From Candidatus Omnitrophota bacterium (lineage in GTDB: Bacteria > Omnitrophota > Gorgyraeia > 2-02-FULL-51-18): a DNA stretch of 64,000 nt. The stretch spans positions 7,409-71,408 of the forward strand of contig CAMDWQ010000009.1 of the NCBI GenBank assembly GCA_945877765.1, in the 5' to 3' direction. Of this stretch, positions 1,608 to 54,000 are shown piece by piece (the first letter of the stretch is position 1; the number at the start of each line of letters is the position of its first letter). Made by a program: the position numbers and the translations under genes. Below the pieces are notes generated by a model, which was given only the letters and a program-made list of their open reading frames with translations, made no database searches and was not told the DNA's origin.

Positions 1608-2597
1608 TTGTTAGTATCAAGCTCATCTATGATTAAAGCTTATGGACGCTTCTTCCTTTTTTTAATTCCAATCCTTGCCCTTTCGGTGGCGGTCTTGTTT
1701 TTACAGCTTAAAAACAATGAGCTTACAAAAATGAATCGGTCACTTCTTGCATCCAATAGCTCACTCCAGGCAAAAGCCCAGCAATTAAAATCAAAAAACA
1801 GGGTGCTATTTAAAACTCTGATCAAAAATGCGTCGTTGGTAAAGGGAATGAAGGGGCAGAAACAAGCCTTCCAAGAAACGATTGATTCCCTAAAAAAACA
1901 AGAGGAGGCAATTCAGTTTGAAATTACAAGATCCCAGGAAGAAATGAATACCGCTCTCGCAGAAAAAACCTATCTCGAAGACATGCTCATCCATAAAACT
2001 CGGCAGATTGAATCTTTGAAAATCCAAAATCCAGCGCCAGTTCAAAATACCGCTGATTTGAACCAAGCTACCGCGGCAGGCGCCGACATCAGCGCAAAAA
2101 TTAAGGAAAAAGAAAACCAAATCCGCACCCTGACCGAACAAAACCGTGCGCTTTCGACCAAAATGGACCGCTTGTATCAAGTCACTACCAGTGAAATTTC
2201 AGAAATCAACGTCGCCAAAATCGCTCTAGAAGATACAGTAACCGGCGCCAAAGACAAAATCAACCAAGAGTGGAATACAGTAAATCTAGGCTCTATTAGC
2301 ATCGATAAGAAGGGTCCGACTCCGCCTGTCGCCGCAGCGCCCGAAGCCGTCAAGAGCGGCCCTAAAACGTCAGGTAAAGTACTGGCGGTAAACGACAGTC
2401 ATGGGTTTGTTGTGGTGGACTTGGGGAAAATTGACAACTTAAGCATGGGCGCGAATCTTGAAATTCTACGCGAGGGAAAAAATATTGCTAGTTTAAGCGT
2501 GCTTGAAATCCGGGATGTAATGACCGCTTGCAATATCAAAAACTTGGAAACTGGCGAAAAGATCAGAGTTAATGATTTGGTTCGGGTTCAAAAATAG
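1608..2597 (+). CDS. coiled-coil protein with N-terminal TM anchor, hypothetical
   Basis: One N-terminal hydrophobic helix, then a long heptad-rich Q/K/E coiled-coil region and a small C-terminal beta-rich domain. I recognise no family. Its 3' end overlaps dxs convergently by 29 nt. Confidence 0.4.
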   Translation: MLVSSSSMIKAYGRFFLFLIPILALSVAVLFLQLKNNELTKMNRSLLASNSSLQAKAQQLKSKNRVLFKTLIKNASLVKGMKGQKQAFQETIDSLKKQEEAIQFEITRSQEEMNTALAEKTYLEDMLIHKTRQIESLKIQNPAPVQNTADLNQATAAGADISAKIKEKENQIRTLTEQNRALSTKMDRLYQVTTSEISEINVAKIALEDTVTGAKDKINQEWNTVNLGSISIDKKGPTPPVAAAPEAVKSGPKTSGKVLAVNDSHGFVVVDLGKIDNLSMGANLEILREGKNIASLSVLEIRDVMTACNIKNLETGEKIRVNDLVRVQK

Positions 2598-9336: not shown

Positions 9337-9786
9337 TCAAGAAAGCTGCTGTTTATAGGTAAACCCACATTTGGGGCAATTCCGTCTTCCCAAAATTGTT
9401 CTTGCTACACCTCGATGATAATTTCTCACAGAAAATAAATCATAAATTTTTACAAGAAATACGCCACAATTGGGACATATTGCTAAAAGGGTGTATATTC
9501 CCACCCAAATAATAATCCAAACAGGTATAGCAATGATGTCGAAAAATTTAATGTTAAAAGAAATACCAACAAAAATAAGATTGACCCAAAAAAGCATCTT
9601 TAGCCGCTTTATAAACTTCTCGTATCTTACTAATTCTTTAGGTGGATGTACTAAATAGAAAAGAATAGGTCTCAAGAAATAAGCCGCTAAAAATATTGCC
9701 AAAGATACAGAAACTACTATGAAAACCGCGGAAATTATTTCAATGGATATTTTTGAATGAGTTAGAAAATTAAATATATCTCGCAT
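9337..9786 (-). CDS. small polytopic membrane protein with C-terminal zinc ribbon, hypothetical
   Basis: 149 aa with about 4 predicted TM helices and a C-terminal CPNCG...(28 aa)...CPKCG pair. Confidence 0.4.
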   Translation of the reverse strand: MRDIFNFLTHSKISIEIISAVFIVVSVSLAIFLAAYFLRPILFYLVHPPKELVRYEKFIKRLKMLFWVNLIFVGISFNIKFFDIIAIPVWIIIWVGIYTLLAICPNCGVFLVKIYDLFSVRNYHRGVARTILGRRNCPKCGFTYKQQLS

Positions 9787-11984: not shown

Positions 11985-12443
11985 TTATATATGAAACGTA
12001 GTCTGTAAAGACGTGGATTTTGTCTTTTTTAGGCGGCGCGCTTCGTCCAAAAGCTCTTTTAGAGTCACCCGCGAAAGGCCTTCCTGAAGAAGCGATTCAA
12101 ATTTCCGCCAAAAAATAAATCCCGCAATGGTCGTTTCCGTGCTGGTCGATACAGCGGGCGGTGACGCAACCGCTGAAAAAAACTTTTTTCCTTCGAGGGC
12201 ACAGAACAAATCCTCCAACGTGACCTCCGAAGGCTTGCGATCAAGCACATACCCCCCTTGAGGACCTCGCACGCTCTTGACCAGGCCGTTTTTCTTAAGC
12301 GCGTTTAAGATTTGTTCTAAATAAGGGGTCGAAATACTTTCCTGCCGGGCAATCTGCGAAACGGCAAGCGACCCCTCCCCAAAACGGCCGGCAAGTGCCA
12401 AAACCGCTTTTAGGCCGTAGAGGGTGCGGGTAGAAAATTTCAT
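11985..12443 (-). CDS. Rrf2-family transcriptional regulator (CymR/IscR-like; lacks the 3-Cys cluster)
   Basis: 152 aa with the N-terminal winged helix MKFSTRTLYGLKAVLALA...SLAVSQIARQESISTPYLEQILNALKKNGLVKSVRGPQGGYVL. There is only one Cys, so it is not an Fe-S IscR type. It is adjacent to the sulfur-assimilation island. Confidence 0.8.
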   Translation of the reverse strand: MKFSTRTLYGLKAVLALAGRFGEGSLAVSQIARQESISTPYLEQILNALKKNGLVKSVRGPQGGYVLDRKPSEVTLEDLFCALEGKKFFSAVASPPAVSTSTETTIAGFIFWRKFESLLQEGLSRVTLKELLDEARRLKKTKSTSLQTTFHI

Positions 12444-12916: not shown

Positions 12917-13492
12917 CTATCGCGCGCTGCCCCCCGTCACCGGGTCTACTTTGATTCCGCGGGATTCCAGAAATTTGATGCCTTTTTCTAGATTTTTTTC
13001 GGTACCCTCAAGCTCTAGCATCATCTCGCCAATAGTTTCCGTGACGCGAGCGCGCCGTATGTTGGGCATGATGTCATATTTTTTAGCCATTAAAAACACC
13101 GCGGGCTCCTGGATCTGAGTCTGCGGAAAAACCAGCATCACGCGCTGGGTTGTTTTTTTGGATCCTGTAGCCTTTTTACGGCTAAGGATAGCGCCGCCGG
13201 CAATGGCTGGGATGATAGAAATATCATCGCCCTCTTTAAGCAAAGTTTCCTGTCCCTGTAAAAAACGAATATCTTCCTCGTTGACATACACATTCACAAA
13301 GCGGCGCAGTTTTCCTTCGGCATCGCAGAGACGTTCCTTGATACCCGGGTGATTTTTCTCAAGCTCTGCCAACATGCCATTAATGTCCTTGGCTTCACAT
13401 TGCACATCGCCCTGGTTATTGGTTAATTTCTGTAAAGGGGTGGGGATTCTTACTTTGACGGCCATATTGCCTCCTAGTGCCTTGTTTGCCAA
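12917..13492 (-). CDS. CysO/MoaD/ThiS-like sulfur-carrier protein with a ~90 aa C-terminal extension after the Gly-Gly
   Basis: Residues about 10-100, [14 protein letters not shown]...[37 protein letters not shown], align closely with M. tuberculosis CysO (RFVNIYVNDEDVRF...ILPAVAGG). The protein then continues AILSRKK...VMLVFPQ...MPNIRRARV...[10 protein letters not shown], a possibly NIL-like domain, and ends near a second GG. Confidence 0.7.
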
Positions 13493-14739
13493 ACATCGGC
13501 TTTGATGTGATTGAGATGCCTAATATTTTCTTCAAATGAACTCAGCGACGGTTTGATACGGTGCGGTTTACCGATATGGTCGCTCACGGCTTCTTGAGTC
13601 TTTAACCCATTACCGGTAATACAAATCACGCAAGATTCGTTTTTGTTAATGACACCATTTTCGATCAGTTTTTTTGCCGAGGCAACAGTGACGCCGCCTG
13701 CGGTCTCGGTAAATATCCCTTCCGTTCGCGCTAGAAGTTTAATCCCCTCGATAATTTCATCATCCGTGACGCTTTCACCTGACCCGCCGCTTTCCTTGAT
13801 TGTATCAATCGCGTAGATCCCATCCGCTGGATTGCCAATCGCCAGAGACTTGGCGATGGTTTTGGGTTTGACCGGCCGGATGATATCACTATTTTCTTTC
13901 ATGGCCGTCACCACCGGAGAGCAGCCCAAAGCTTGCGCCGCGTACATTTTTGTATCCACGGAGCTAATCAAGCCAAGTTTTTTAAATTCATTAAACGCTT
14001 TCCAAATTTTAGTCAAAAGAGAGCCGGAGGCAACTGGCACCACCACATGTTTCGGGGTGCGCCAGCCAAGCTGTTCCATGATTTCATAGCCGTAGGTCTT
14101 GGAACCTTCAGCGTAGTAGGGACGGATATTGACGTTCACAAACGCCCAGTGATACTTGGCGGCAATCTCAGCACAAAGACGGTTCACCTCATCATAATTT
14201 CCCTCAACCGCCACCAGATTCGGCGCATAAGCCAAGGCACCAATCACTTTTCCCAATTCCAAATCGGCGGGAATAAAAACAAAGCGGTTAAGACCTGCCC
14301 AAGCGGCATTCGCACTAACCGAGCCGGCAAGATTTCCGGTCGACGCACAAGCAACTGTTGTAAACCCAAGTTCTTTCGCACGCGTCAACGCCACCGCCAC
14401 CACACGATCTTTAAATGAAAGTGTAGGATGACAAACCGAATCATCTTTAATATAAAGTTCTTTCATTCCTAATTCACGAGCTAGATTTTCCGAGCGGATG
14501 AGTGGAGTAAAGCCCGCGTGATAGCCGACGGTTGGCTCACCCTCAATGGGCAAAAGCTCCCGATAACGCCAAAGACTCTTAGGACCCTTTTGAATTTTTT
14601 CGCGTGAGATGACGGATTTAATTTTATCGTAATCATAATCCACTTCCAGAGACCCAAAACAAAACTCGCAGACATAAATAGCCTCTGCTTTATAAACTCG
14701 GTGGCACTCGCGGCACTTCAGACCTTTGATATAACTCAT
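13474..14739 (-). CDS. threonine-synthase-family PLP enzyme (fold type II) with N-terminal Zn ribbon
   Basis: 421 aa with N-terminal CREC...CEFC, the PLP-lysine motif [15 protein letters not shown] and a Gly-rich loop. Its 3' end overlaps the CysO-like gene by 19 nt. Confidence 0.8.
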
Positions 14740-14821: not shown

Positions 14822-15889
14822 TCAAAAATTCAAAAAAAGATCCTTCAAGTCCGGCTTTTTCTTCAAAAAACCTACCTGATACGCGTTCTGGGCCTGAGCC
14901 AAAACAGACTCCCGCATCTGATCGGTGGTAAATACCACCCGCTTCCATGCCATATCCAAAATAGTGGGGTCCATTTTTCTGCGCATGAATTTTTCAAATT
15001 GATTATTGAATAATTCTTTTGACTCTTTAGGATGTCCATTAATCCAGTCCGTCAGCTCGCGATGTGCCCTCAAGAAATTTCGTACTTGCTCCGGGTGCTG
15101 ATCTAAAAATTTTTTCCTTACAATGACAACCGTTGTTGCATACCGGCCTTTGGGCCACAACGACGACTCTTCCATGAATATTTTTGTCCCGCCTTGCTTC
15201 AAATAAATAGAAACCCACGGTTCTACGCTCCACGAAGCATCAATTTCCTTTTTAGAAAAAAGACTCAGCTGATCCGCGTTCGCCACCGGCAGCACATCCA
15301 CGTCGCCCCCTTTTTCACGAATTTTTAAATTTTGTGAAAGAAGCCACGAGCGCAATGCCACATCCTGCGTGTTCCCAAATTGAGGAGACGTTATTTTTTT
15401 CCCATGAAAATCCTGCGCCAATTGAATCCCCGCATCCTCCCGCACGACCAACGCTGCGCCGCCGCTGGCCGCTCCAGCAAGAATGCGAACCACCTCGCCG
15501 TTGGATTTCACATAACCATTCACCGCGGGGCTGGGCCCAACATACGCAATATCCAAGTGATTGGCAAACATCGCCTCAATCACCGAGGGTCCCGCATTAA
15601 ACACCGTCCACTCCACCGCGCCCTTCCCTAATTTTTGATCCCAAAATCCATTCGCCTGCCCCACCATCGCCTGCGCATGCGTGATATTGGAAAAAAACCC
15701 CGCCCGAATCTTTTCCGTCTTCTCCGCCGCCACTATCCCTGCGCCTATAAAACTGAAAGCGCTCGGAATTAGCACAAAGAATATTATTAGCACGCGGCGG
15801 GTGGCGCGGAGGGTGGGCGCCCATTGACCCGCAGGCCAAAGGAAGGCCGAGGACGCAATGGGCTCCCGCAGCGACAGGCCCTGCCGCAT
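14822..15889 (-). CDS. ABC transporter substrate-binding protein, NitT/TauT (SsuA/TauA/NMT1-like) family
   Basis: Periplasmic-binding-protein fold with a TM/signal segment VLIIFFVLIPSAFSFIGAGIVAA. The exact start is uncertain because the 5' end of the ORF runs through a GC-rich repeat (15785..15895); it may use a non-ATG start further downstream. Confidence 0.7.
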   Translation of the reverse strand: MRQGLSLREPIASSAFLWPAGQWAPTLRATRRVLIIFFVLIPSAFSFIGAGIVAAEKTEKIRAGFFSNITHAQAMVGQANGFWDQKLGKGAVEWTVFNAGPSVIEAMFANHLDIAYVGPSPAVNGYVKSNGEVVRILAGAASGGAALVVREDAGIQLAQDFHGKKITSPQFGNTQDVALRSWLLSQNLKIREKGGDVDVLPVANADQLSLFSKKEIDASWSVEPWVSIYLKQGGTKIFMEESSLWPKGRYATTVVIVRKKFLDQHPEQVRNFLRAHRELTDWINGHPKESKELFNNQFEKFMRRKMDPTILDMAWKRVVFTTDQMRESVLAQAQNAYQVGFLKKKPDLKDLFLNF

Positions 15890-15895
15890 CACCTT
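15785..15895. repeat. GC-rich structured element, divergent copy C, in the leader of the SBP gene
   Basis: GCGGGTGGCGCGGAGGGTGGGCGCCC...GGGCTCCCGCAGCGACAGGCCCTG shares the GGGTGGCGC-GGAGGG core and the CCCGCAG..GACAGGCCC tail with copies A and B. Confidence 0.3.
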
Positions 15896-15906
15896 CACTA
15901 TATTCT

Positions 15907-16698
15907 TCAACTCTTTTCCAGCCCCCAAAGTTTTCTAAACTTCCTCTCTAGACTCCCAAACACCAACATATCCATCACAATCCCAATCACAATAATCACG
16001 ATCATCACCGCCATCACCTGGCTCATATCATTCAACTCCCGCCCCACATTCAAAAGATGCCCCAACCCCAGCGTCGCAAACACAATTTCGGCTCCCATGA
16101 GCGCCCGCCATGCAAACGACCACCCCTGCTTGAGCCCTCCCACAATCGAAGGCAGCGCGGCAGGAAAAATCACATATAAAAACATATCAATGCCGCGAGC
16201 GCCCATATTCCGCCCGGCCCGCAAATACATTGGCTGAATATTTTTGACACCGCTATCGGTAGCAATCGTCACGGATAAAAGGGACCCCATGATGACAACA
16301 AAAATAATTGCTGCTTCGCTCAAACCAAACCACAAAATTGCCAGCGGCAGCCAGCAAATACTCGGCAGCGTCTGAATCCCCACAAAAAAACCGCCCAAGG
16401 TCTCGTCTAGCACCCTGATTTTCCCGATTACCAGGCCAATTGCCACGCCAATCACCACTGATATTCCATAACCTAAAAGTAATCTTTTCATCGTCACAAA
16501 AATAGCGGAAAAAAGAGTCTTGTCCTTATAAATCGAGATAAACGTCTCGCCCACCTGCGCCGGGGAGGGGAATAAATAAGACGGCCATAGCTTTAGATTG
16601 AATAAAAATAACCATAGAAAATAAAGCAGTGAATAAAAAATTACCTGCCTTATGATTTTTAGAAGCATACTGTCATGATAGAAAAAATTTCGGATCAT
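15907..16698 (-). CDS. ABC transporter permease (NitT/TauT family, SsuC/TauC-like)
   Basis: 263 aa with 6 TM helices and a BPD-transport inner-membrane-component fold. It sits between the ThiS-CysK fusion gene and the SBP gene. Confidence 0.8.
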   Translation of the reverse strand: MIRNFFYHDSMLLKIIRQVIFYSLLYFLWLFLFNLKLWPSYLFPSPAQVGETFISIYKDKTLFSAIFVTMKRLLLGYGISVVIGVAIGLVIGKIRVLDETLGGFFVGIQTLPSICWLPLAILWFGLSEAAIIFVVIMGSLLSVTIATDSGVKNIQPMYLRAGRNMGARGIDMFLYVIFPAALPSIVGGLKQGWSFAWRALMGAEIVFATLGLGHLLNVGRELNDMSQVMAVMIVIIVIGIVMDMLVFGSLERKFRKLWGLEKS

Positions 16699-16701
16699 AG
16701 G

Positions 16702-17847
16702 TTATATATTGAAATACGGCTCCAGACTTAAGTATCTTTCCCACGAGTCAGGAAACAGGACGACCACCTTTTTCCCCGCGCCCAGCATTTTGGCAATCTT
16801 CACTGCCCCAACACAAGCGGCTCCGCAAGAAATTCCCGCAAAAACCCCTTCTTCGCGCGAAAGCCTTTTGGCCATCTGGTAGGCTTCTTGATCCCCGACA
16901 GGAATAATTTCATCAATTAGGCTGCGATCCAAAACATCAGGGATAAACCCTGCGCCGATTCCCTGGATCATGTGCGGTCCGGGTTTTCCGCCGGATAATA
17001 CACTGGATGTTTTCGGCTCTACGGCGATAATGCGGGTCTTTGGATTGTGCTCTTTAAGCACCTTTCCCACACCCGTAATAGTCCCTCCGGTTCCGACGCC
17101 CGCAACAAACGCGTCCACTTGTCCGTCCATGTCGCGCAAAATTTCTTTAGCGGTTGTTTTTCGGTGCATCGCCGGATTATCCGGATTCTTAAACTGCTGA
17201 GGCATAAACGCGTCTTTTATCGTGGACACGATTTCCCGAGCACGTTCAACAGCGCCGGCCATTCCTTCTTTGGCTGACGTGAGCATCACTTCCGCACCAA
17301 AGCTTTCAAGAATTTGAATTCTCTCCTGGCTCATCCCGTCCGGCATCACTAAAATTACTTTATAACCTTTAACAGCACCCACAATCGCTAAGCCAATACC
17401 AGTGTTGCCGCTGGTAGGCTCAATGATCGTGGAACCCGGTTTTAAAAGACCTTTTTTCTCAGCCTGTTCCACCATGTTGAGCGCAATTCTGTCTTTGACA
17501 CTGGCGCCGGGATTAAACATTTCAAGCTTGGCATAAACACTGGCAGAATCTTTTTCGATGATTTTCGAAAGACGCACCATCGGTGTCTCTCCGATAAGAT
17601 CAAGAACGCTTTGGGCAATCGCGCCGCCGCCCATATAAAAAACAAATTCGACACGGTCCCCTGCCTGGATCTTTGTCGAATCGTATTCTAGTTTTTGCGG
17701 GATATTTTCATTGATCTCAACCGTGACAAGCTCCGGACGGACTTTCCATTTGAGCAAAATATCCGACACCGACAACCCTTTTTGAATTTGTTGTATTTTT
17801 CCGTTTAATTGGATTTGGATCATTTCTTTGGCTTCAGTGTTAGACAA
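16702..17847 (-). CDS. fusion protein: N-terminal ThiS/MoaD-like ubiquitin-fold domain ending in GGG, joined in-frame to cysteine synthase (CysK/CysM, PLP)
   Basis: Residues 9-74, MIQIQLNGKIQQIQKGLSVSDILLKWKVRPELVTVEINENIPQKLEYDSTKIQAGDRVEFVFYMGGG, form a ThiS-type domain with a terminal Gly-Gly. They are followed directly by a CysK core with the PLP lysine (MFNPGASVKDRIA), TSGNTG and the GTGGT loop. Confidence 0.8.
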   Translation of the reverse strand: MSNTEAKEMIQIQLNGKIQQIQKGLSVSDILLKWKVRPELVTVEINENIPQKLEYDSTKIQAGDRVEFVFYMGGGAIAQSVLDLIGETPMVRLSKIIEKDSASVYAKLEMFNPGASVKDRIALNMVEQAEKKGLLKPGSTIIEPTSGNTGIGLAIVGAVKGYKVILVMPDGMSQERIQILESFGAEVMLTSAKEGMAGAVERAREIVSTIKDAFMPQQFKNPDNPAMHRKTTAKEILRDMDGQVDAFVAGVGTGGTITGVGKVLKEHNPKTRIIAVEPKTSSVLSGGKPGPHMIQGIGAGFIPDVLDRSLIDEIIPVGDQEAYQMAKRLSREEGVFAGISCGAACVGAVKIAKMLGAGKKVVVLFPDSWERYLSLEPYFNI

Positions 17848-17864: not shown

Positions 17865-17942
17865 GTCATTCCCGAGTGCTTTAATCGGGAATCAAACTTG
17901 GATTAGACATGATCCCCGAAAAAAAAATTCGGGGATGACATT
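17865..17942. repeat. REP/MITE-like hairpin elements, two units (TTCCCGA/TCGGGAA type and CCCCGA/TCGGGG type)
   Basis: GTCATTCCCGAgtgctttaATCGGGAATCA ... catGATCCCCGAaaaaaaaatTCGGGGATGACAtt. Confidence 0.7.
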
Positions 17943-17950
17943 TTAAGCTT

Positions 17951-18355
17951 TTAAACGATTTCTATTTCTTCCTCTATTATTTTTTCGTCTTTAATCTTAA
18001 ATGAACGTAAAATTGGTTTGTTTATATCCGACAGTGACACGATCAGATAACTCACATCAGGATAAAATGCCAGACGCACATCTTTCTGAGAAGGAGCCGC
18101 CTCACTTGCCACATGCGAATGAAAAATGCCCGTCATCTCTATTCCCATCTCTCTCATTTTCTTAAGAACTAAAAGCTGCTCTTTGGGGTCCATAAAATAG
18201 CTGATGCTTGATTCATCTAGATTTCTCATTGGGAAAAATTTAGAAGTAATTCTTTTTTTTAAATCCCCTCCAAGAATGCCGCAAGCCTCATTGGGGAACC
18301 CTGCTTTGGCATGCGCGATCATCGCCCCATAAATGGATTTAGAGAGGTGGATCAT
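17951..18355 (-). CDS. JAMM/MPN+ metalloprotease (Mec+/QbsD-like)
   Basis: 134 aa with E...HSHVASEAAPSQKDV (the JAMM motif HxHx7Sx2D). It sits next to the ThiS-CysK and CysO-like genes. Confidence 0.8.
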   Translation of the reverse strand: MIHLSKSIYGAMIAHAKAGFPNEACGILGGDLKKRITSKFFPMRNLDESSISYFMDPKEQLLVLKKMREMGIEMTGIFHSHVASEAAPSQKDVRLAFYPDVSYLIVSLSDINKPILRSFKIKDEKIIEEEIEIV

Positions 18356-19195
18356 TTAAATATTACTCCCTAAGTTTCTCTCTGCCGGTACTTGATCGAT
18401 GTTTTTATCCAAACCGTAATCAAGATCCAACTGCTCTTTAGCCACTTTATCAATCTCGTCTTTCAAGGAACCCATAATCTTTGTCTGCAGCATCAAAAGC
18501 TGCGGGTCCTGCTCAACGCGTGGGCGCGGAATCCGTACGGGATATTCTTTTTTAATTGTCCCGGGCCTTGCTGAGATTTCAAACACTCGGTCCGACAAAA
18601 ACGTCGCCTCGCGCACATTATGTGTCACAAAAAATATAGTCTTCTTCGTTTTTTGCCAAATCGTCTGCAACTCTTCCTGTAACAGTTGGCGGGTTTGCGC
18701 ATCCAGAGCCGCAAAAGGCTCATCCATCAAAAGAATTTTAGGATCCATCACTAGTGCCCTAGCAATCGCCGCCCGCTGGCGCATCCCGCCGGACAGCTCA
18801 TGCGGATAGGCATTTAAAAAACGAGTCAAATGGACCATCTTAAGCGCCTCAAATGCGCGCTGGTTTCTCTCCGCCAGAGAAACTTTCTGAAGTTTTAAAC
18901 CAAATTCCACATTTTCCTGCACCGTCAGCCAAGGAAAAAGCGCCGCCTCCTGAAACACCACCAGCCTGTCCTTGGAAGGACCGTCTACAATTTTAGAATC
19001 CACATACACTTCACCCGAATCCGGAAACTCAAGTCCTGCAATGAGCGATATCAGCGACGACTTCCCGCAGCCTGAGGGCCCAATCACACAAATAAACTCA
19101 CCCTCTTCAATTGAAAAATTAATATCCCGAAGCGCCTGCACCCGCTGGCCCTTCTGCTGAAAACTTTTATGGACTCGCTTTAAAGTGACTCGCAT
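18356..19195 (-). CDS. ABC transporter ATP-binding protein (SsuB/TauB/NrtD-like)
   Basis: Walker A GPSGCGKSS, signature LSGGMRQR and Walker B LLMDEPFAALD. Confidence 0.85.
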   Translation of the reverse strand: MRVTLKRVHKSFQQKGQRVQALRDINFSIEEGEFICVIGPSGCGKSSLISLIAGLEFPDSGEVYVDSKIVDGPSKDRLVVFQEAALFPWLTVQENVEFGLKLQKVSLAERNQRAFEALKMVHLTRFLNAYPHELSGGMRQRAAIARALVMDPKILLMDEPFAALDAQTRQLLQEELQTIWQKTKKTIFFVTHNVREATFLSDRVFEISARPGTIKKEYPVRIPRPRVEQDPQLLMLQTKIMGSLKDEIDKVAKEQLDLDYGLDKNIDQVPAERNLGSNI

Positions 19196-19353: not shown

Positions 19354-20055
19354 TTATCGGTGTAACCCACATTCTTTGTTTTCCGGATTTTCCCACCACC
19401 AACGTCCCGCTCTCACATCCTCGCCTGGTTTGATCCCACGAGTACACGGTGCACAGCCAATGGACGGATACCCCAAATCATGCAGTCGGTTATAAGGCAC
19501 CTTATTAACTTTAATGTAATCCCACACTTGTTTTTCCGACCAGTCCGCCAGCGGATTAATTTTTAAAATTCCTCCGTGCGCCTCATCCACCTCAATTTTT
19601 TGTATCGCTGTACGGGTCACTGCTTGTTCACGGCGTAAACCCGTGATCCAAGCCTTCAATCCGGTAAGTGCCCGATTCAAAGGCTCGACTTTTCGAATCC
19701 CGCAGCACTCTTTGCGATTCTCCACCGACTCCCGAAAAGAAAAAAATCCTTTTTGCCTTTCGAGCTCCTCAATCTTCACACGGTCAGGAAAATAAGACTC
19801 AATCGTAATTCCGTATTTTGAACGAATTCGCTCCATCACCTCATACGTCTCTTCATTCAAGCGCCCAGTATCCAATGTAAATACCCGCGCCATAGGCTTA
19901 ATCTTGGACAGGAGGTCAATGACCACTACATCTTCCGCCCCAAACGAAGAAGCAAAAGCTACCTTATCCCCAAACTCTTTCAGCGCCCACCCCAGCACCA
20001 TCTCAGCCGGCTTTTTCTCAAACTCCCCATTCAATGCTGAAAAATCATATTGCAT
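19354..20055 (-). CDS. cysH: assimilatory adenylyl-sulfate (APS)-type reductase, thioredoxin-dependent
   Basis: PAPS-reductase fold, plus the CC...CxxC pattern (KECCGIRK, SIGCAPCT) and the C-terminal KECGLH, as I recall it from APS-specific Fe-S reductases. Start placed at MQYDFSAL; the 54 upstream codons of the ORF-track call are read-through of the GC-rich repeat B. Confidence 0.8.
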   Translation of the reverse strand: MQYDFSALNGEFEKKPAEMVLGWALKEFGDKVAFASSFGAEDVVVIDLLSKIKPMARVFTLDTGRLNEETYEVMERIRSKYGITIESYFPDRVKIEELERQKGFFSFRESVENRKECCGIRKVEPLNRALTGLKAWITGLRREQAVTRTAIQKIEVDEAHGGILKINPLADWSEKQVWDYIKVNKVPYNRLHDLGYPSIGCAPCTRGIKPGEDVRAGRWWWENPENKECGLHR

Positions 20056-20061
20056 AGCGTC

Positions 20062-20205
20062 TGCTCCCGCAACGGGTGGCGCCGGAGTTGCGCATATAAC
20101 GATAGGACATTGCTCCCGCAACGGGTGGCGCCGGAGGGGAGGCCTCCGCTGCGCGGAATGAAGAATTACATGAGCACAGCGGAGTCCCGCAGGTGACAGG
20201 CCCTG
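20062..20205. repeat. GC-rich structured repeat element, copy B, with an internal 24-nt tandem duplication; leader of cysH
   Basis: GCTCCCGCAACGGGTGGCGCCGGAG occurs twice, then GGGAGGCCTCCGCTGCGCGGAATGAAGAATTACATGAGCACAGCGGAGTCCCGCAGGTGACAGGCCC. This is near-identical to 5396..5470. Confidence 0.5.
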
Positions 20206-20222
20206 TTGCGAACACATCGCAC

Positions 20223-21503
20223 CTATATAGCACTCACATGCTCCACATTTTTCAAAATAATCCCGCCCCCGCGCACATCATGATCGCTGACCAGCACAAA
20301 TCGTCCCGTTTCCGGAATTTCATCAAACGTATCAAACGCAATCGGCTTCTTGGTCGAAAGAATGATCTCCGCCACTTCGTTTTTAGCCACCTCATGCGAA
20401 TTTTTTGAGATTTCTTCCAAGGTTGAGGAATTAATCACTTTTAAAATCGCCTCGACCACGCACTCGACTTCCTGAGTCGCGACTTTCAAAATATACTTTC
20501 CGCCTTTTTCCAAGTGCTTATTCCCCATCCAAAAAATATTCGCCGAAAACCGGTCAGACACCAAGGTCTTGTTGGATTTTAAGCATCCAATCTCCCCGCG
20601 CTCGACAAAAATTTGATCTTCCATGGTTAGACCTATCGACTCCCCAGCAACTACCGTCATGGGCATCGGCGCATTCCATTTTTCAATGGTTTTTACTTTG
20701 GTCGATTTTCCCGACGGCATGAAGATAATCTCATCCCCGATAGAGATCGTGCCCGATTCCAGACGTCCGGCAATAATACGCCGCTTATCAAATTTGTACA
20801 CATCCTGCACCGGAAAACGCGCCGCCAGCTTCGAGCGGTCATCATGTGTGGCAAAATTCTCCAACACTCCCAGGATCGATTCCCCCTGATACCAAGGCAT
20901 GTTGACGCTTTTTTGCACGACATTGTCCCCGTGATAAGCTGAGATCGGGATAAAAGTCCTCGGTTTCACGTTGATCGATGCCAAGTATTTCGTGTAAGTC
21001 GTCACCACGTCGTTAAAAACTTTCTCGGAATACTTCACTAGATCCATCTTATTGACCACAATAGCGATCTGCTTGATGCCTAAAAGCGAAAGAATATACG
21101 CGTGTCGTTGCGTCTGCTCCTGAATCCCTTCCTCCGCGTCAATCATGAGAAATGCCACATCGGCGTTGGAAGCACCCGAAATCATATTCTTTAAAAATTC
21201 CTTATGACCCGGCGCATCAATAACAACATAATTTCTTTTTTTGGTCCTAAAAAACATCTGTGCCACGTCAATCGTAATCCCTTGGTCGCGCTCTTCCTCG
21301 AGGCCGTCCAAAAGAAAAGCAAATTCAAACACTTTTCCCTGGTCTTCGCAGACTTTTTTGACATGAGCAATTTTATTGTCCGGGATGAAACCGGTCTCGC
21401 TTAGGAGGCGTCCCACCAGTGTCGACTTGCCGTGGTCCACATGGCCCACCATCACAAACTTTAATGTTTCCGTTGAGGTTAAATTTAAATCTAGAGTTTC
21501 CAT
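20223..21503 (-). CDS. cysN: sulfate adenylyltransferase large subunit (GTPase)
   Basis: G1 [10 protein letters not shown]3 DAPGH and NKMD, plus EF-Tu-like beta-barrel domains. The start overlaps the cysD stop. Confidence 0.85.
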
Positions 21504-22303
21504 TACATATATCCTTTGGTTCTAAGTTTCTGCATCGCGTAAGTGTCTTCTTGGTCCTGCGCCCGACCGGCCCGTTCGGAAGTCTTGCCTGCTTTAAGCT
21601 CGGCAATAATCTCATCCAAATTAGAAGCCTTGGAATCAATGGAAGCGGTGCAGGGTGCGCAACCCAAACTGCGGTACCGTTTGCCATTTTTTGAAAAATA
21701 AAGACTCACCACCGGAATATTTTCACGCTTGATATATTCCCATATATTCAATTCCGTCCAGTGAAGCAAGGGATGGATACGAATATGCGTATTTTCGTCA
21801 AAATTGGTTTTAAATTGGTCCCAGAGCTCTGGCGGCTGGTCCTTAAAATCCCACTCAAAGTTTTTATCACGAGGAGAAAAATAGCGCTCTTTGGCACGCG
21901 TAGATTCTTCGTCGCGGCGAATCCCCAGGATCAATCCTTTATAGTCATACTGTTCCATAATCTGGTGAAGCCCATTGGTCTTTAACGCCGTGCAGCAGTT
22001 AATACGCCCCAGCGTGTAATTCATGCCTTCGGCCAGCGCCTTTTTGTTCTGGCCAACAATCAGGTTTAAATCCCACTCTTTGGCATAGCGGTCGCGAAAC
22101 TCAATCATCTCAGGAATTTTGTAACTGGTATCAATGTGCACCAGCGGAATTGGCACGTGGCCATAGAACGCCTTTCGTGCCAGCCACAAGAGCACATTCG
22201 AATCTTTCCCAATCGACCATAGCATGGCCAACTTCTTAAATTTTTTCTGCGCTTCGCGTAAAATAAACACGGACTGATTTTCTAGCTTATCCAGATGATC
22301 CAT
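21503..22303 (-). CDS. cysD: sulfate adenylyltransferase small subunit
   Basis: 266 aa with a PAPS-reductase-like ATP pyrophosphatase fold ([17 protein letters not shown]) and the C-terminal G(R)AxDQE motif. Confidence 0.9.
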
Positions 22304-22435: not shown

Positions 22436-22506
22436 GTCATCCCCGAAATCTTTAATCGGGGATCATGTATAGGTTTGATTCCCGATTAAAACTCTCGGGA
22501 ATGACG
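22436..22506. repeat. REP/MITE-like hairpin elements, two units
   Basis: GTCATCCCCGAaatctttaATCGGGGATCATg tataggtt TGATTCCCGAttaaaactcTCGGGAATGACgtg, inside a 430-bp AT-rich intergenic region. Confidence 0.7.
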
Positions 22507-25690: not shown

Positions 25691-27291
25691 AATCTTCTGT
25701 TTTTTGGGATTGTCTGATGCTAAGCCTGGTGTGGATTGCCGACATCTGTCTGGTGAACCCTGCCTGAAATTTTCCGCTCAACGACGACTGGGCTTACGCA
25801 CTGCCGGTCAAAAGCCTACTAGAAGAAGGTGTCATCCGCATCCCCGGATGGGCTTCAATGTCCCTGTATTCACACATTTTTTTTGGCACCCTGGCAGGAA
25901 AATTATTTGGTTTTTAGTTTGACGCTCTCAGGGCCGTGACTCTGATTTTTGGCTTGGCGGGAGTAGGCGCCACTTATTTTATTTTAAAAGAAGTAGGATT
26001 ATCCCGCGGGGTTTGTTTGATCGGGTCGCTGACGTTGGCGCTAAATCCTATCTATTTCTCTCTTTCTTATACCTTCATGACGGATGTGCCGTTTTACACG
26101 GTCTTTGTTCTCTCGGCTTATTTCTTTCTGCGTTCTATTCGCACGGATTCAAGGCAGGCCGAGGCTCTGGGCGCCCTCATTTCTTGGGTCGCCATTGGTT
26201 ATCGGTAGTTTGGAATCATTGTGTCCGGATCCTACGCGGCGGCCCGTCTCTTACAAAAAGGATTGTCTGCCAAACAACGACTGCGCGCTTTCTATCCCTT
26301 TTTTGTTGGGATTATGGAGCTAGTGGTGATCCACACTCTTTTTAAATACACACACGGCGAAGTGGGAAACTATGTCGACCAAATTGAAATGATTTTATTT
26401 AAACCTTATGAGAGCCGTTTTTACAGCCACTTGTTTGAGGTGATCCTCTACTCGTTGGTTTACTTGGGTTTATTTCTGCTGCCGATGACCCTACTGAGTA
26501 ATTTTGGATGGATGTTTTTTATTCACTCTGGTGGCAGACTTTCAGATGCCGCTCACCGAGAACATGATTCTTTTTTTGGCATTGGGCCGATTGTTTTAAG
26601 ATCCAGTTATGCCTATGCTCCCTCTGCGAACTTGCTGCAAAAACCAGGGGAAATTCTATGGCTTTCATTGAGCGCCATTTTTTTTTGGATTCATCCTTCT
26701 ACTGGCGGCGTTATTTTCCACGCAAAGAAGGCTTGCCCAGGAAAATAGGACGCCCCAGCGGAGATCGGCTTTCCGGTTTATTTTCTTATGCTGTTTTCTT
26801 TACTTAGCATCCTTCATCGTTTTTCCCGTATTTTTTGACCGGTATGTCTTTCATTTTATTCCGTTTGTCATGATTCTTATTTTTTGGGGACAAGCCACCG
26901 GCGCGCCGGTGGTTAAATTTAGGATTTTTGAAAAAATAACTTTTGGGGGGGGTTATTGGCTATTTTTGCCTACTTTTCGGTGGCAGGTACCCACGACTAT
27001 CTTGCCTGGAACCGTGCGCGCTGGGAGGCTCTGCGGGATTTAACCCAAATAAGAAAAATACCCATCAATAAAATCGATGGTGGTTTTGAATTTAACCGCT
27101 GGCAGTCTTCGGTTAAATTTAAAGTTCATTATAATACACAACCGGATTGGCGAATAGGGGAGGACGACTATATCGTCGGTTTGTCACCCGCAAAAGGTTA
27201 CACCGAAATAGCCGAGGTTCCATTTCAGAAATGGCTTCCACCAGGAAAAGCAAGCATCCTCGTCATGAAAAAAGAGGAAACCGCGTAAATT
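25688..27291 (+). pseudogene. decayed tandem paralogue of the upstream GT-C-like membrane protein gene
   Basis: Fragments 25688.., 25936..26208, 26221..26748 and 26956..27288 are collinear with 23978..25690 (e.g. NPIYFSLSYTFMTDVPFYTVFVLSAYFF vs NPIYLELSNTFMTDVPFYVVFVTSVYYF; AGTHDYLAWNRARWEALRDL vs AGTHDYLWLNRTRWKATQEL). They are interrupted by in-frame stops (TGA at about 25765, TAG at about 25914 and 26206) and by frame shifts. Confidence 0.65.
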
Positions 27292-35942: not shown

Positions 35943-37349
35943 TTATTGCTTTTGATAAACGATAAACCCCGGCAAAGCCGAATCGCGGCCGGCAGGGCCA
36001 AACTGCGGCGGGTGCAGCCAGCCCATGTAGTCATTGCCTTCAGGAAAGGCGATTAGGCGCAAACGGGCAGGAAAGAAAGCGGCTAGGCGCTCTTCGGTGA
36101 GCGGATAACCTGCTATATTCCGGTCCATGACGGCATTCACGTCATGATAAAATTGACCCTCGGCAAACCAGTGAATGGGCGTCAACGTTGGAAAGTAAGT
36201 TTCCTGAGGATGCGCTTTAGCGTACTCGTAAGCCACGTTTGCCTGATTGATCTTCCCCGCCGGGCGCAGAATACCCGAAACGGCATACGCCGCCTGCGCC
36301 GCCGTCAGAAATAACATCAATAAAACCGTTATTTTTTTAAGGCCAAAAGGGCGCGCCGGCATCGCGGCGTTTTCTTGGCAAACCGAACCGAGCCACGCCA
36401 TCATCAAGCCTGTCAGCAGAAAATAATTGGTATAGCTCAAGGCATTGCGGGAACCTCCAATTTTGACAAAGCCAAGATAAGCCGCCGGAAGCATCAAAGC
36501 CGCCACCACTAAAAGGAGTATCCCTGGCGCCCGGCGCCATTTTTCTCGATGCCAAACCGCGATAAAAAAAACCGGTAAAATTAAAAGGTACTCCCGGATC
36601 AACTTGTCACAAAAAAGGAACAATGCCTGGATTCCCCCATTTTCTTTAAAGGGGTGATGGGCGGGAATTACCACGGTATTGAAAAATAAATTCTGGGCCC
36701 CAAAGACGGAGCCGAATAACAGTGTCCAAAAAATACCGTGGAATAAAAGAAACCCGCAATATCGAAAAAAAATCTTCCTGCCATCCGTTAGAAGAATGTA
36801 AATGGGAAGTGCTGCCACCAGAGGCGCCGCTACTAATTTGGACTCAACCGCCAAAACAGCCGTGGCGGCCGATAGGAATAAAGAAATCCAGCAATCGGGC
36901 TTTTTGCGAAAATACAGAAAAGCACAAGAGACCATGCCAAGGCCTAAAGTCGGCGCATCGACATGGACGTTGAAAGCCGCATTTTTGAGCGAGTACATCA
37001 TCAGAGTTAGAAAACAAAAACCAAAAAACAAAAGCCAGGCCCAGCGTCTATCGACGGCATGGGAAAATTTTCTTCCCCAAAAAATCCATCCCACGGGCAA
37101 TAGATAGAAAGTCAGCGCCAAAAAACAAGCGGCCCTCATTGCCGAGGCAGGTGTCGGAAAAAAAGTGGCCGGCAAATAAGCGATCACGGAGACGGGCCCG
37201 TAGAGGGTGTTGAGCGCGGGGCCGGAGTCTTTACCGTGATAAAGAGGAAGGCCGGCCGCCAGCACAAACGTTTTCTGAAGACGGTTCCAGTTGTGAATGT
37301 TATGAACGGAATTCAAAATTTGGGAAGCAAATAACAGGATCAGCGTCAT
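35943..37349 (-). CDS. polytopic membrane protein, putative GT-C-fold glycosyltransferase
   Basis: 468 aa with about 12 TM helices. It is not similar in sequence to the 23978 gene but has the same general architecture. Confidence 0.4.
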   Translation of the reverse strand: MTLILLFASQILNSVHNIHNWNRLQKTFVLAAGLPLYHGKDSGPALNTLYGPVSVIAYLPATFFPTPASAMRAACFLALTFYLLPVGWIFWGRKFSHAVDRRWAWLLFFGFCFLTLMMYSLKNAAFNVHVDAPTLGLGMVSCAFLYFRKKPDCWISLFLSAATAVLAVESKLVAAPLVAALPIYILLTDGRKIFFRYCGFLLFHGIFWTLLFGSVFGAQNLFFNTVVIPAHHPFKENGGIQALFLFCDKLIREYLLILPVFFIAVWHREKWRRAPGILLLVVAALMLPAAYLGFVKIGGSRNALSYTNYFLLTGLMMAWLGSVCQENAAMPARPFGLKKITVLLMLFLTAAQAAYAVSGILRPAGKINQANVAYEYAKAHPQETYFPTLTPIHWFAEGQFYHDVNAVMDRNIAGYPLTEERLAAFFPARLRLIAFPEGNDYMGWLHPPQFGPAGRDSALPGFIVYQKQ

Positions 37350-39943: not shown

Positions 39944-40014
39944 GTCATTCCCGAAAGTATTTATCGGGAATCAAACCTTAACATGATCCCCGATAAAAAA
40001 TTTCGGGGATGACA
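39944..40014. repeat. REP/MITE-like hairpin elements, two units
   Basis: GTCATTCCCGAaagtatttATCGGGAATCA aaccttaa CATGATCCCCGAtaaaaaattTCGGGGATGACA. Confidence 0.7.
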
Positions 40015-46036: not shown

Positions 46037-46296
46037 CGTCATTCCCGAACACCACGCAGTGTCATCCCCGAAATTATTTATCGGGGATCATACATCACCC
46101 CACAGTGTCATCCCCGAAATTGTTTATCGGGGATCATACATCACCCCCACAGTGTCATCCCCGAAATTGTTTATCGGGGATCATACGCAGATTTGATTCC
46201 CGATTAAAACTCTCGGGAATGACGTAGGTGTTAGAGATCATACCTTAGTTTGATTCCCGATTAAAGCTCTCGGGAATGACGTTGTGGAATGACATT
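46037..46296. repeat. tandem array of REP/MITE-like hairpin units (about 6 units, both subtypes)
   Basis: Three near-identical about 46-nt units, acagtGTCATCCCCGAaattgtttATCGGGGATCATacatcaccc, flanked by TTCCCGA/TCGGGAA-type units. The 'spacers' are only about 11 nt and identical to one another. Confidence 0.75.
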
Positions 46297-51089: not shown

Positions 51090-54000
51090 TTAGGCGGCTT
51101 GCTCGGCCATGCGGGCGGTCATGTTGTAGGCACTGACGATATTAGCCACATTCAAGCAGTGAATGGCCAGTCGTTGGACGATGTCGGGGGTGAGTCCCAC
51201 GCCTTGCACGAAATTCAAGAATTCGACTGGGGCCGCGGCGGAGACGTCAGACCCCAGGGCCTGGAAAATTTCTCTTAACCGTTGCTGGTTACGTGGATGC
51301 TTTATTCCCTCTTTTCCTATTTCCGCTTCCGCGATTAATCCATGAATCAAAGCATCGAAATTGAGAAAACCTCTTTGGGTGGGGACCTGAATAATCAGAT
51401 GGAGCCTGTCTTGGCTAAGAATACGAATATTTTTAGGGTCCATCGCCTCCAACGAAGCGCTCTTCATCGATTTAATATTTGATGGAGCTTTTTTCAAAAT
51501 AAATGTCTGTGAAGGATACAGCGCCTCTGCGCGGTCCATAATTTTTTTCCTATTTTTTGGCGTGATTCCAACGATCTGAAAATAGACGTTGAATTTAGTT
51601 GCCTTGTGCATGGCGTTCACGAGCGCGTGGGTAAAAAGCTCATCCGTGGGTAATTTTTTTTGACTCATAAGTCCTTTGAGATTGATAATCAAAAATTTAG
51701 ACTCAGGCGTGATTAGAGATTCGGTGAGACTCCGGACTTTGTTGGTTTGCTCGGCGAGTTTGTTCTTTAGCTCCAGCTGAGAAAGAAGCTCGTCTTGGGA
51801 GAGCATCAACGTCGCGTCTATATTTTGACCTTTACGATTTCTTGTGATGATGGCTTTGTAATTCCTCAAGACAACCTCCATAGAGTCTTCAAAATAAAGA
51901 CGGAGAATCTTGGCATCATGGTCCAAAGTGAATCGCAGGGTCTGGTCTCCTATCACGAGGCTTCCTTCCACAAAATCACGGCGAGCACTAATAATGGCTT
52001 GGGCGGCGAAAACGAGCCTGTCGTGACGTTCAATGGTGCCGTTGGCATAAATGGTTGGTGCGAATTGCATGGTCGCCTTTAGCGCCCCCAAATGACGGGT
52101 AGGAGCTTCGGATGCCAACCGTGCCGCGTCTCGATATTCAACATACGATGATGTGCCTATTCCCCTGCCTTCAAATGTTAAAGGTATGCTGTGATATTCC
52201 CAAAATGAGAAATCCTTTACCTCTTTATTTACAAACGTGCCACGGGGATGATACTCCTCTATTTCTGGAAAAGCGGTATCTAGGACTTCCATCTTCTGCA
52301 AATGTCTCTCCTGGCGGTTGAACTGAATTCTGATGACTATCGGGAGTCTATAATTCCTCTTATTCCCATGGTCTAAAGCATTTCTTAACATCTCTTTGAG
52401 GATATAAGTTGCCCCGAAAGCGGAGTGGTCACCCGGGTTTTCTTTTATCAAAATATCTTCTATTGCCCTTGCAAGATAATAGAAGCGCGAAGACTCCGCA
52501 TCGTGCCCACTAAGCCTAGAGCGATCTTCTATGTGAGAAAGATCAATCCATAGCGGCTGCTCATTTTTAATGGCATCACTTAAAGCCTCTTTATCGACCG
52601 GCGATGACAGATCTATTTTTATTAATTTCGTATTTCTTGCCACATATTCTAATAGTGCCTTAGAGGACGTCTGTTCTTCCCTCTTTTTTTTGTCATACTC
52701 CACTAGCCTTGTTTGAATACTAAAATTACTTTTTGTCAAAAGTTTATCCCGCACGATGATTGGAAGCTGTACGCTGTCATCAGGCACTACAAAACGTAGA
52801 TTAACCTTACCCCCTTCAATCTTCGTAAAAAGCATTGTGATTTGTTCTAAAATAGGGGTCTTTCCCCGGATTGCGATTGTATCTTTTGGGGTGGGGTGAT
52901 TTTCAAGAAGTATCCGTGAAACTTTATTCCAATCAGGACTTTCTGGTCCATTGGAAGTCTGAACCACAATGTAATTACCAGCCGCATTGATCTTGTCCAC
53001 ACGGACCTGCACCAAGTTGTGACTTTCTTGATCATAGACCCATATTAACTCGCCTTCATTGGCAGGCATCCAAATCGGTGTGGTTGCCAACCGGGCACCA
53101 TTCGGATCCCCGCTGAGGCTTTGCTCATCGGTTGCTGCAACACGTGACCCTTGGCCTGCGGGGCTCTCTCGGGATAGATGTTCTAGCGCAACAGCGACGT
53201 CGTTCGTCACAACAACAGCTGCTGTTGGGTATAACTTAAGAAAGTTTTTAAGTAATGTTGCTCTTTCGTCGTCATCCGTAATTCGGTTGATCCTAGCCAA
53301 CTCTTGATTAGCTGCGGAAGAAACATCTGCCAAATCAGGGTAGCTAGGATACAGATCAATGCTGGTGATCGTACCTCCCAAATTTAGAAGTGTGGGCAAT
53401 AGCGGTGAATTTCTTCCTATGGATCCAACCTGAGCAGTTGACTTGCTAAGATTCGCAGATAGAGCCGCCTTTAATGCGTAGTGATACAACATTTTAAACA
53501 ATGCGTGTCCTTTATAATCATCCGATCTTGCTAGTGAGGCATTGCCCAATATTCTCTGCTGTTCATCCATAATGATTATTATCCCCACAAAATATGCTAT
53601 CAACTTTCCTTTATCATCACGAATCACAAAACTAATAGAACTAGGCCTACTAGCCAATTCTGCAATGCGTAAGGGTTCCATTCCCGTCGGCGGAAGACTC
53701 TGGATTTCTTCTGCTTTGAGAATATTTTTTCCCCCTACTCTCTCTAGGACCAAATCATGCTTTTCTCCATCTTTTACTATGCTAAATCGGTGAGGGAGTA
53801 GCCCTGTGAATGCATTGTCTATCAGAGATTGATCGTTCTGGAAACATATCATCTCAATCTCATTGACGTATTTCCTGAATTTATCACCGTAACCTGCATA
53901 CCTATCGTTATCTGCATACTTATAAAGAGCATCATTATCCGCTAAAAACCTTTCCATAATATTCAAGGCTGCATCTACATTCGTATTACCGATAGGGTAT

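Follow-up and report, generated by a model that had tools for sequence, protein, structure and literature searches.

We describe an in-frame fusion of a ThiS-type sulfur carrier to a CysK-type cysteine synthase (ThiS::CysK), found in a 64-kb stretch of DNA from a Candidatus Omnitrophota bacterium (contig CAMDWQ010000009.1); this whole stretch is referred to below as the window. The fusion gene sits in a sulfate-assimilation operon, next to a gene for a stand-alone JAMM metalloprotease. Several lines of comparative evidence make it probable that ThiS::CysK is a precursor in a protein-thiocarboxylate route that leads from sulfate to cysteine and homocysteine.

Both halves of the fusion score above curated thresholds within one open reading frame (ORF), as the initial annotation had proposed, although it left the strand (minus) unstated. 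The TTG start lies 5 nucleotides (nt) downstream of a Shine-Dalgarno sequence, and the product is identical to a database protein (P0001). The N-terminal domain, described earlier as some 75 ThiS-like residues ending in VEFVFYMGGG, matches the whole of Pfam profile PF02597 (residues 12-75, E = 1.2e-8, 35.8 bits, cutoff 22.5) and the NCBIfam thiS model TIGR01683 (51.7 bits, cutoff 37.45); a failure of profiles to recognize this domain, which had been raised as a danger to the proposal, did not occur. Alignments to the solved ThiS structures 2k5p (E = 1.1e-8) and 1tyg_B of B. subtilis (E = 2e-4) both stop exactly at GGG. The cysteine synthase core begins directly after GGG, and its pyridoxal phosphate (PLP) lysine is Lys118 (SVKDR, nt 17494-17496), again in agreement with the earlier description. 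This half matches PALP (PF00291, residues 82-367, E = 1e-79) and the cysK model TIGR01139 (443.6 bits, cutoff 350.95), and K118, the TSGNTG loop and the GTGGT loop are invariant columns among the CysK domains of relatives. Its best matches in the PDB are 2egu (E = 1e-115) and Mycobacterium tuberculosis CysK1 (2q3b), which are canonical CysK and not CysM enzymes, and the cysM profiles stay below their cutoffs (TIGR01138, 297 versus 394.2; NF008735, 295 versus 413).

The sequence across the junction is ...DRVEFVFYMGGG(73-75)-AIAQSVLDLIGETPMVRL..., or VEFVFYM-G73-G74-G75-A76-IAQSVLDLIGETPMVRL. As translated, the protein has Gly75 joined by a peptide bond to Ala76 of CysK, and the carrier can therefore present a free C-terminal Gly-Gly only after proteolysis. 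The initial annotation had offered two interpretations of this architecture, processing of the fusion and a covalent channelling design. The latter is not sustained: thiocarboxylate formation needs a free C-terminal carboxylate for adenylation by an E1-type activating enzyme (PMC3227635), and channelling in the uncleaved protein fails because an internal Gly-Ala peptide bond offers none. An AlphaFold model of the full protein contains a beta-grasp fold at residues 9-70, with block-mean predicted local distance difference test scores (pLDDT) of 70-92, and a confident CysK core. Residues 71-75 have pLDDT <50, the predicted template-modelling score (pTM) is 0.66, and the two domains are not confidently docked or packed at the junction. 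Structure prediction, proposed earlier as a way to learn if the active site is within reach of the GG tail, delivered the two folds but not that distance. The low pLDDT at the junction fits a flexible tail in this model.

Another 31 protein clusters in a large protein collection have this in-frame junction (74-89% identity, independent assemblies), alongside unfused CysK proteins of 308 residues that are 80-87% identical, and an exhaustive HMMER search with residues 1-125 recovered a second, divergent fused lineage (43-52% identity). A database search for ThiS-PALP fusions had been recommended in the initial annotation; among 80 loci from species-representative genomes, about 61 are fused in frame and about 19 are split. 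Identity spans 38-89% over these ~61 species-level genomes and the independent metagenome assemblies, of which there are dozens. The loci are mostly from Omnitrophota, with others labelled Saganbacteria, Margulisiibacteriota, Zixibacteria, Caldisericota, Sumerlaeota, Dictyoglomaceae, WOR-1 and Eisenbacteria, and many records bear the submitter label "uncultured Planctomycetia". The fusion is the majority form of this operon family in several candidate phyla. It had been called unusual and not characterized. The first word was too strong, given this distribution and the precedent of MoaD-MoaE fusions; the second stands, as neither the searchable literature nor three comparative surveys yielded any account of ThiS fused to a cysteine synthase, with subscription-only papers a possible exception.

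The public database name of these fused proteins is simply "cysteine synthase A". One member of a fused cluster, P0277 (OGW71331.1, Omnitrophica bacterium GWA2_41_15, 315 residues), is called from an internal start that strips off the ThiS domain, and shows how annotation can hide the fusion. HMMER matches of ~600-700 residues were considered as X-ThiS-CysK triple fusions and rejected, being tandem PALP-PALP proteins, and a 2415-residue protein with 19 matched stretches proved to be a Cwp8-type repeat protein and not a poly-ThiS.

Variation among relatives is highly uneven across the junction. No relative examined, fused or split, departs from GGG, while the segment from GGG to the first CysK motif is free in sequence and 1 to 21 residues long, as one would expect of a cleavage site with a disposable tether behind it. 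Among the ~19 split relatives, each ThiS tail read, which means all but that of L057, extends 1-27 residues beyond GGG (YQ, S, MV, DLHS and SPSDKEA are examples) and none ends at GG-stop, so that processing would be needed in the split state too. The ThiS stop and CysK start codons of split loci overlap by 4 nt (ATGA type) or 1 nt, and a single indel is therefore enough to toggle between the two states. Fused and split forms interleave on a tree of CysK domains, with at least nine switches by parsimony, an approximate count because the neighbour-joining topology is crude. From this interleaving the two forms appear to be functionally equivalent.

The candidate protease is encoded immediately upstream; its gene ends 103 nt before the fusion gene, in accord with the 100 nt given in the initial annotation. 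Its translation contains a complete motif, E23...H79-S-H81-x7-S89-x2-D92, as defined by the zinc motif E...H-x-H-x7-S-x2-D (PMC5925218). The protein matches Prok-JAB (PF14464, E = 3.7e-22) and the structures 2kks (E = 3e-34) and PfJAMM1 (5lda, E = 9e-11), and scores 79.7 bits with the desampylase model, which is under that model's cutoff. The JAMM gene is present in 35 of the 36 loci that have at least 8.5 kb of upstream DNA. Together with the invariant GGG, the variable tether and the blocked split tails, this gives good comparative support to the processing interpretation.

The 103-nt gap between the JAMM and fusion genes is filled by one copy of a palindromic intergenic element that resembles repetitive extragenic palindromes (REP-like; GTCATTCCCGAG..TTTAATCGGGAATC) and by a ATCCCCGAA-T9-TTCGGGGAT hairpin, and it has a predicted fold of -35.8 kcal/mol (z = -2.9). 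The element has at least five copies in the window, where none is expected by chance. The spacer is absent from relatives, in which the JAMM and ThiS::CysK genes overlap, and for this reason it is best regarded as a local insertion within the operon. A riboswitch-like leader was considered for this region and rejected, since the palindrome is repeated elsewhere in the window and missing from relatives.

The operon of the window reads, all on the minus strand, CysD, CysN, adenylylsulfate/phosphoadenylylsulfate (APS/PAPS) reductase, ABC ATPase, JAMM, ThiS::CysK, ABC permease, substrate-binding protein, ThrC-like enzyme, MoaD::NIL and Rrf2 (Table 1). The APS/PAPS reductase ORF as listed is probably too long at its N-terminus, as homologues have 237-248 residues.

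Table 1. Features of the ThiS::CysK operon and REP-like elements in the window.
Feature	Position	Strand	Basis
ThiS::CysK fusion ORF, 381 residues	16702..17847	-	Single uninterrupted ORF, TTG start, GGAGGGAG Shine-Dalgarno
ThiS-type beta-grasp sulfur-carrier domain, residues 1-75, end VEFVFYMGGG	17623..17847	-	PF02597, TIGR01683, PDB, AlphaFold
Gly73-Gly74-Gly75, predicted JAMM cleavage and E1 activation site	17623..17631	-	Invariant in fused and split relatives examined
CysK domain (type-A O-acetylserine sulfhydrylase-like), residues 76-381	16705..17622	-	TIGR01139, PDB, invariant columns
Stand-alone JAMM/MPN+ metalloprotease, 134 residues; predicted maturase and cysteine-releasing hydrolase	17951..18355	-	PF14464, PDB, motif
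CysD-like ATP sulfurylase small subunit	21503..22303	-	PAPS_reduct family; operon position conserved
CysN-like GTPase subunit of ATP sulfurylase	20223..21503	-	GTP_EFTU, GTP-eEF1A_C
APS/PAPS reductase	19354..20217	-	PF01507, E = 5e-50
ABC transporter ATPase	18356..19195	-	Profile match
ABC transporter permease	15907..16698	-	Profile match
NMT1/sulfonate-type substrate-binding protein	14822..15928	-	Profile match
ThrC-like PLP enzyme with N-terminal Cys4 ribbon; candidate MetM-type thiocarboxylate-dependent homocysteine synthase	13474..14739	-	PALP, TIGR00260
CysO/MoaD-like carrier, end IIPAIAGG, fused in frame to NIL	12917..13492	-	ThiS 14-100, NIL 117-182
Rrf2-family regulator, closes conserved cluster	11985..12443	-	Conserved in 39 loci
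REP-like copy	17865-17893	+	Palindrome repeat
REP-like copy	22477-22505	-	Palindrome repeat
REP-like copy	46195-46223	-	Palindrome repeat
REP-like copy	46252-46280	-	Palindrome repeat
REP-like copy	39948-39970		Palindrome repeat

Clustering of neighbouring ORFs across all loci separates two operon types. Type A has the gene order of the window and is represented by the window, L002, L004, L005, L007, L010, L012-L014, L016, L018, L020-L022 and L026; these operons carry CysDN and, in most cases, the sulfonate-type ABC transporter, and they are systematically without the siroheme genes, E1 and sulfite reductase that are constant members of type-B operons. The order in type B is Rrf2, PAPS reductase, PiT, JAMM, siroheme genes (HemA, C, B, L and CobA/HemD), ThiS::CysK, a small NIR_SIR sulfite reductase, ThrC-like enzyme, a stand-alone MoaD and a ThiF-only E1 of 271 residues. 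An E1 of the ThiF family (PF00899) is present in all 26 well-flanked type-B loci, and the sulfite reductase gene of type B directly adjoins ThiS::CysK. An operon class of this kind was predicted by Iyer, Burroughs and Aravind in 2006 (their Table 1, rows 4c-4e).

The operon encodes a second carrier, which is related to M. tuberculosis CysO (3dwg_C, E = 2.7e-20) and is itself blocked. Its true start is likely the ATG of MAVKVRIP at nt 13465. Wherever the MoaD carrier was found in type A (21 loci; for example L002, 12396-12914, and L005, 14303-14821), it is fused to NIL, and in type B it carries 0-10 residues after GG, with a free GG in only 6 of 30. In L081, from a Dictyoglomaceae metagenome-assembled genome (JBNARO010000004.1), a MoaD-type carrier forms the N-terminal part of an in-frame fusion with its own ThiF-type E1, with 271 residues beyond GG; it is a third kind of carrier-partner fusion in the operon family. 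The second carrier obeys the same rule as the first, its GG being followed by NIL, by a tail of 1-10 residues or, in L081, by E1. Methionine ABC transporters and the NIL-ferredoxin homocysteine system of methanogens are the other known settings of NIL domains, and a released NIL domain may be a methionine- or homocysteine-sensing or a sulfur-handling module. The adjacent ThrC-like enzyme scores above the thrC equivalog cutoff (TIGR00260), and its gene is paired with a MoaD GG carrier in 64 loci. This conserved pairing suggests that it is a MetM-type homocysteine synthase misannotated as a threonine synthase.

The route that we propose would begin with cleavage of ThiS::CysK by the adjacent JAMM protease at the invariant Gly-Gly(-Gly), after G74 or G75. 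The products would be a ThiS-type carrier of ~8 kDa with a free C-terminal glycine and a CysK enzyme of ~33 kDa, whose N-terminal peptide would read AIAQSVLDLIGETPMVR. A ThiF/MoeB-type E1, encoded in the operon of divergent relatives and here presumably outside the 64-kb window, would adenylate the carrier, and sulfide from sulfite reduction would convert the adenylate into the thiocarboxylate, ThiS-COSH. CysK would form the PLP-aminoacrylate from O-acetyl- or O-phosphoserine, and the thiocarboxylate tail would act as the nucleophile. An S-to-N acyl shift would follow, and hydrolysis of ThiS-Cys by the same JAMM would release cysteine. Homocysteine would likewise be produced by the parallel pair that the operon encodes, namely the ThrC-like enzyme and its CysO-like carrier, MoaD::NIL. 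The assignment of CysK as the cognate partner of ThiS is suggested by the conserved fusion and by the translational coupling of the split genes. Fusion guarantees co-expression of ThiS and CysK in equal amounts, and it may keep both partners inactive until cleavage.

Several considerations weigh against this proposal. The enzyme is of the CysK type and not of the CysM type that accepts CysO-COSH, and could simply use free sulfide; we know of no CysK that accepts a protein thiocarboxylate. The carrier, by its profile matches, belongs to the ThiS family, and hence the system is not a strict member of the M. tuberculosis CysO-CysM family. Neither E1 nor sulfite reductase was detected in the 64-kb window (Pfam searches of all ORFs of at least 110 residues, and tblastn with the type-B E1 and sulfite reductase) and both are missing from all 14 type-A loci that are well flanked; the activation step in the lineage of the window consequently rests on a gene outside our view. 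The AlphaFold model, with its low-confidence junction, is uninformative on docking of the carrier tail. The scissile bond is placed only to within one residue. What the data show directly are the architecture, its conservation, the gene contexts and the interconversion with split genes, and from these we infer both cleavage of the fusion and use of the thiocarboxylate.

An alternative is that the fusion is permanent, with ThiS serving as a docking or regulatory module that recruits sulfite reductase or E1, or gates the active site, while CysK uses free sulfide and JAMM serves only MoaD. The canonical free-sulfide profile of the CysK domain would suit such an arrangement, as would the lack of a visible E1 in the window and type-A loci, the adjoining sulfite reductase gene of type-B operons and the wide use of beta-grasp domains as adaptors (PMC1949818). 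Yet it leaves unexplained why an invariant GGG stands next to an unconstrained tether of variable length, why the fusion interconverts freely with split genes that encode a separate ThiS, and why every split ThiS tail read has an activatable GG followed by a removable extension; the AlphaFold model also lacks confident interdomain packing at the junction. We regard a permanent fusion as quite improbable. An artefact, either a frameshift joining two genes or a CysK made from an internal start, is more improbable by far and can practically be dismissed. Split versions one indel apart do occur in close relatives, and the P0277 record is called from an internal start, but the same junction recurs in independent assemblies across the range of identities given above, which excludes the sequencing error or frameshift that the initial annotation had named as a possible refutation. 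An internal start has no Shine-Dalgarno sequence before Met72 or Met90, as opposed to a strong one before the TTG, and Met72 itself is conserved in ThiS, stand-alone ThiS included.

JAMM might also free the carrier for a different purpose, such as thiazole/thiamine synthesis or tRNA thiolation, so that CysK would be linked to it only as an upstream source of sulfur and would not consume ThiS-COSH. The carrier is indeed of the ThiS and not the CysO/MoaD family, free sulfide is the normal substrate of CysK, and Iyer et al. interpreted operon links between ThiS and cysteine synthase in Chlorobi in this way. However, no thiG, thiH, thiF, thiI or tRNA-thiolation genes are among the recurrent neighbours in the 80 loci. 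The neighbours are instead genes for sulfate activation and reduction, siroheme genes, E1, JAMM and the second carrier-PLP enzyme pair. Moreover, the fusion is specifically to CysK, the split genes are translationally coupled, and known carrier-enzyme fusions unite cognate partners (MoaD-MoaE). These observations make it unlikely that the carrier is destined for another pathway. A broader form of our proposal is that a single small JAMM serves as general maturase of a whole set of natural linear fusions, much as a deubiquitinase would; the set would consist of ThiS::CysK and MoaD::NIL and also, in one lineage, of MoaD::E1. Uncleaved ThiS::CysK would then resemble a zymogen, inactive as covalently linked SAMP1-MoaE is, with cleavage as a regulated switch for the assimilation of protected, protein-bound sulfide by a CysK-type enzyme that accepts a protein thiocarboxylate. 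We put this forward as a speculative extension that is rather doubtful as it stands.

Cleavage of fused or extended carriers has precedents. DRJAMM cleaves the natural MoaD-MoaE fusion of D. radiodurans (DR2607) and exposes the glycine (PMC8832034), M. tuberculosis MoaX requires a cut after Gly82 for activity (PMC4326299), HvJAMM1 of H. volcanii cleaves SAMP1-MoaE (PMC4443979), and QbsD trims QbsE (PMC5925218). MoaD-MoaE fusions have in common with ThiS::CysK an N-terminal beta-grasp GG carrier, an in-frame C-terminal enzyme and GG at the junction; their Gly-Gly cleavage, by a stand-alone JAMM/MPN+ protease, is needed for activity, whereas cleavage of ThiS::CysK is predicted. They differ in their role in molybdopterin synthesis, in the MoaE partner, which is not a PLP enzyme, and in their MoaD-type carrier. 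The JAMM gene of Deinococcus lies apart from the fusion and no protease is known that cuts MoaX, in contrast to the adjacent JAMM gene of the window.

The chemistry of our proposal follows that of CysO, CysM, Mec and MoeZR in M. tuberculosis, where MoeZR sulfurates CysO, the protein thiocarboxylate is the sulfide donor and a JAMM protease frees cysteine from the carrier (PMC3227635). The Mec+-CysO-CysM genes share with the window the order JAMM, carrier, cysteine synthase, and a JAMM with an intact motif in the operon. Nevertheless CysO is a separate protein of the MoaD family with a free GG, while the window carrier is of the ThiS family and fused; CysM belongs to a distinct O-phosphoserine-specific clade, while the window enzyme scores as CysK; and the E1 of related operons is ThiF-only, without the rhodanese domain of MoeZR. 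MoeZR is encoded away from mec-cysO-cysM, as the E1 of the window's lineage would have to be. The CysO-like protein of the window is the other carrier, which lies beside the ThrC-like gene and not beside CysK.

The W. succinogenes HcyS/HcyD/HcyF/MetY system and class 4e of Iyer et al. (2006) likewise combine a carrier with blocked GG, an operon-encoded JAMM that trims it, as predicted for the window, surrounding genes for sulfate transport, activation and reduction, and, as in type-B operons, an E1 without rhodanese. HcyS differs in that the block is a single residue rather than an enzyme of 306 residues, the consumer is MetY (fold-type I), and there is one carrier rather than two. The details of HcyS reportedly stem from Krishnamoorthy and Begley in 2011. 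In the MetO/MetM/Mec pathway, MetM is a ThrC homologue and Mec matures MetO (GapMind 2026 preprint, summarizing Hasebe et al. 2024). In this Streptomyces MetO/MetM/Mec/MoeZ system a ThrC-homologous PLP enzyme uses a carrier thiocarboxylate, and by this description it matches the 12917-14739 pair; it concerns this neighbouring ThrC-like/MoaD pair and not ThiS::CysK, and a NIL fusion is not described there. JAMM-matured carriers in general (HcyS/HcyD, QbsE/QbsD, CxnE/CxnF, MetO/Mec) have extra residues after GG and a JAMM alongside, and here the extension is a CysK of 306 residues. Eukaryotic ubiquitin-ribosomal protein and polyubiquitin precursors are also linear fusions with a Gly-Gly-X end, freed by a deubiquitinase-type protease. 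Their partner is not an enzyme that uses the ubiquitin-like protein, their proteases are mostly cysteine-protease deubiquitinases, and they serve protein tagging and not sulfur transfer.

Elsewhere in the window, a giant ORF of >4302 residues (51090-63998, minus strand) runs past the window end; its only Pfam matches are a short TPR stretch (residues ~370-442) and one methyltransferase domain (residues ~2072-2203). Four ORFs of 149-468 residues have no Pfam family at E <= 1e-3: 1608-2597 (+), 35943-37349 (-), 26221-26748 (+) and 9337-9786 (-).

Both the pathway class and the principle of joining a carrier to its partner enzyme for cutting by JAMM are already known, and the fusion is a new variation on a known cysteine-making route. 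It extends the carrier-fused-to-enzyme design from molybdopterin synthase to amino-acid biosynthesis and introduces no new principle. JAMM, ThiS::CysK and E1 form a compact three-gene system in which two questions can be put: can a bacterial JAMM cut a ubiquitin-like domain away from a folded enzyme of 33 kDa, and is a protein thiocarboxylate a usable substrate for a canonical CysK? If the general maturase proposal were true, it would be a bacterial counterpart, in amino-acid biosynthesis, of the processing of eukaryotic ubiquitin-fusion precursors. Given the label "cysteine synthase A" and the one record with an internal start, metabolic reconstructions would miss the proposed pathway. If our model holds, Omnitrophota and several uncultured phyla would make cysteine and homocysteine by way of protein-bound thiocarboxylates and not from free sulfide.

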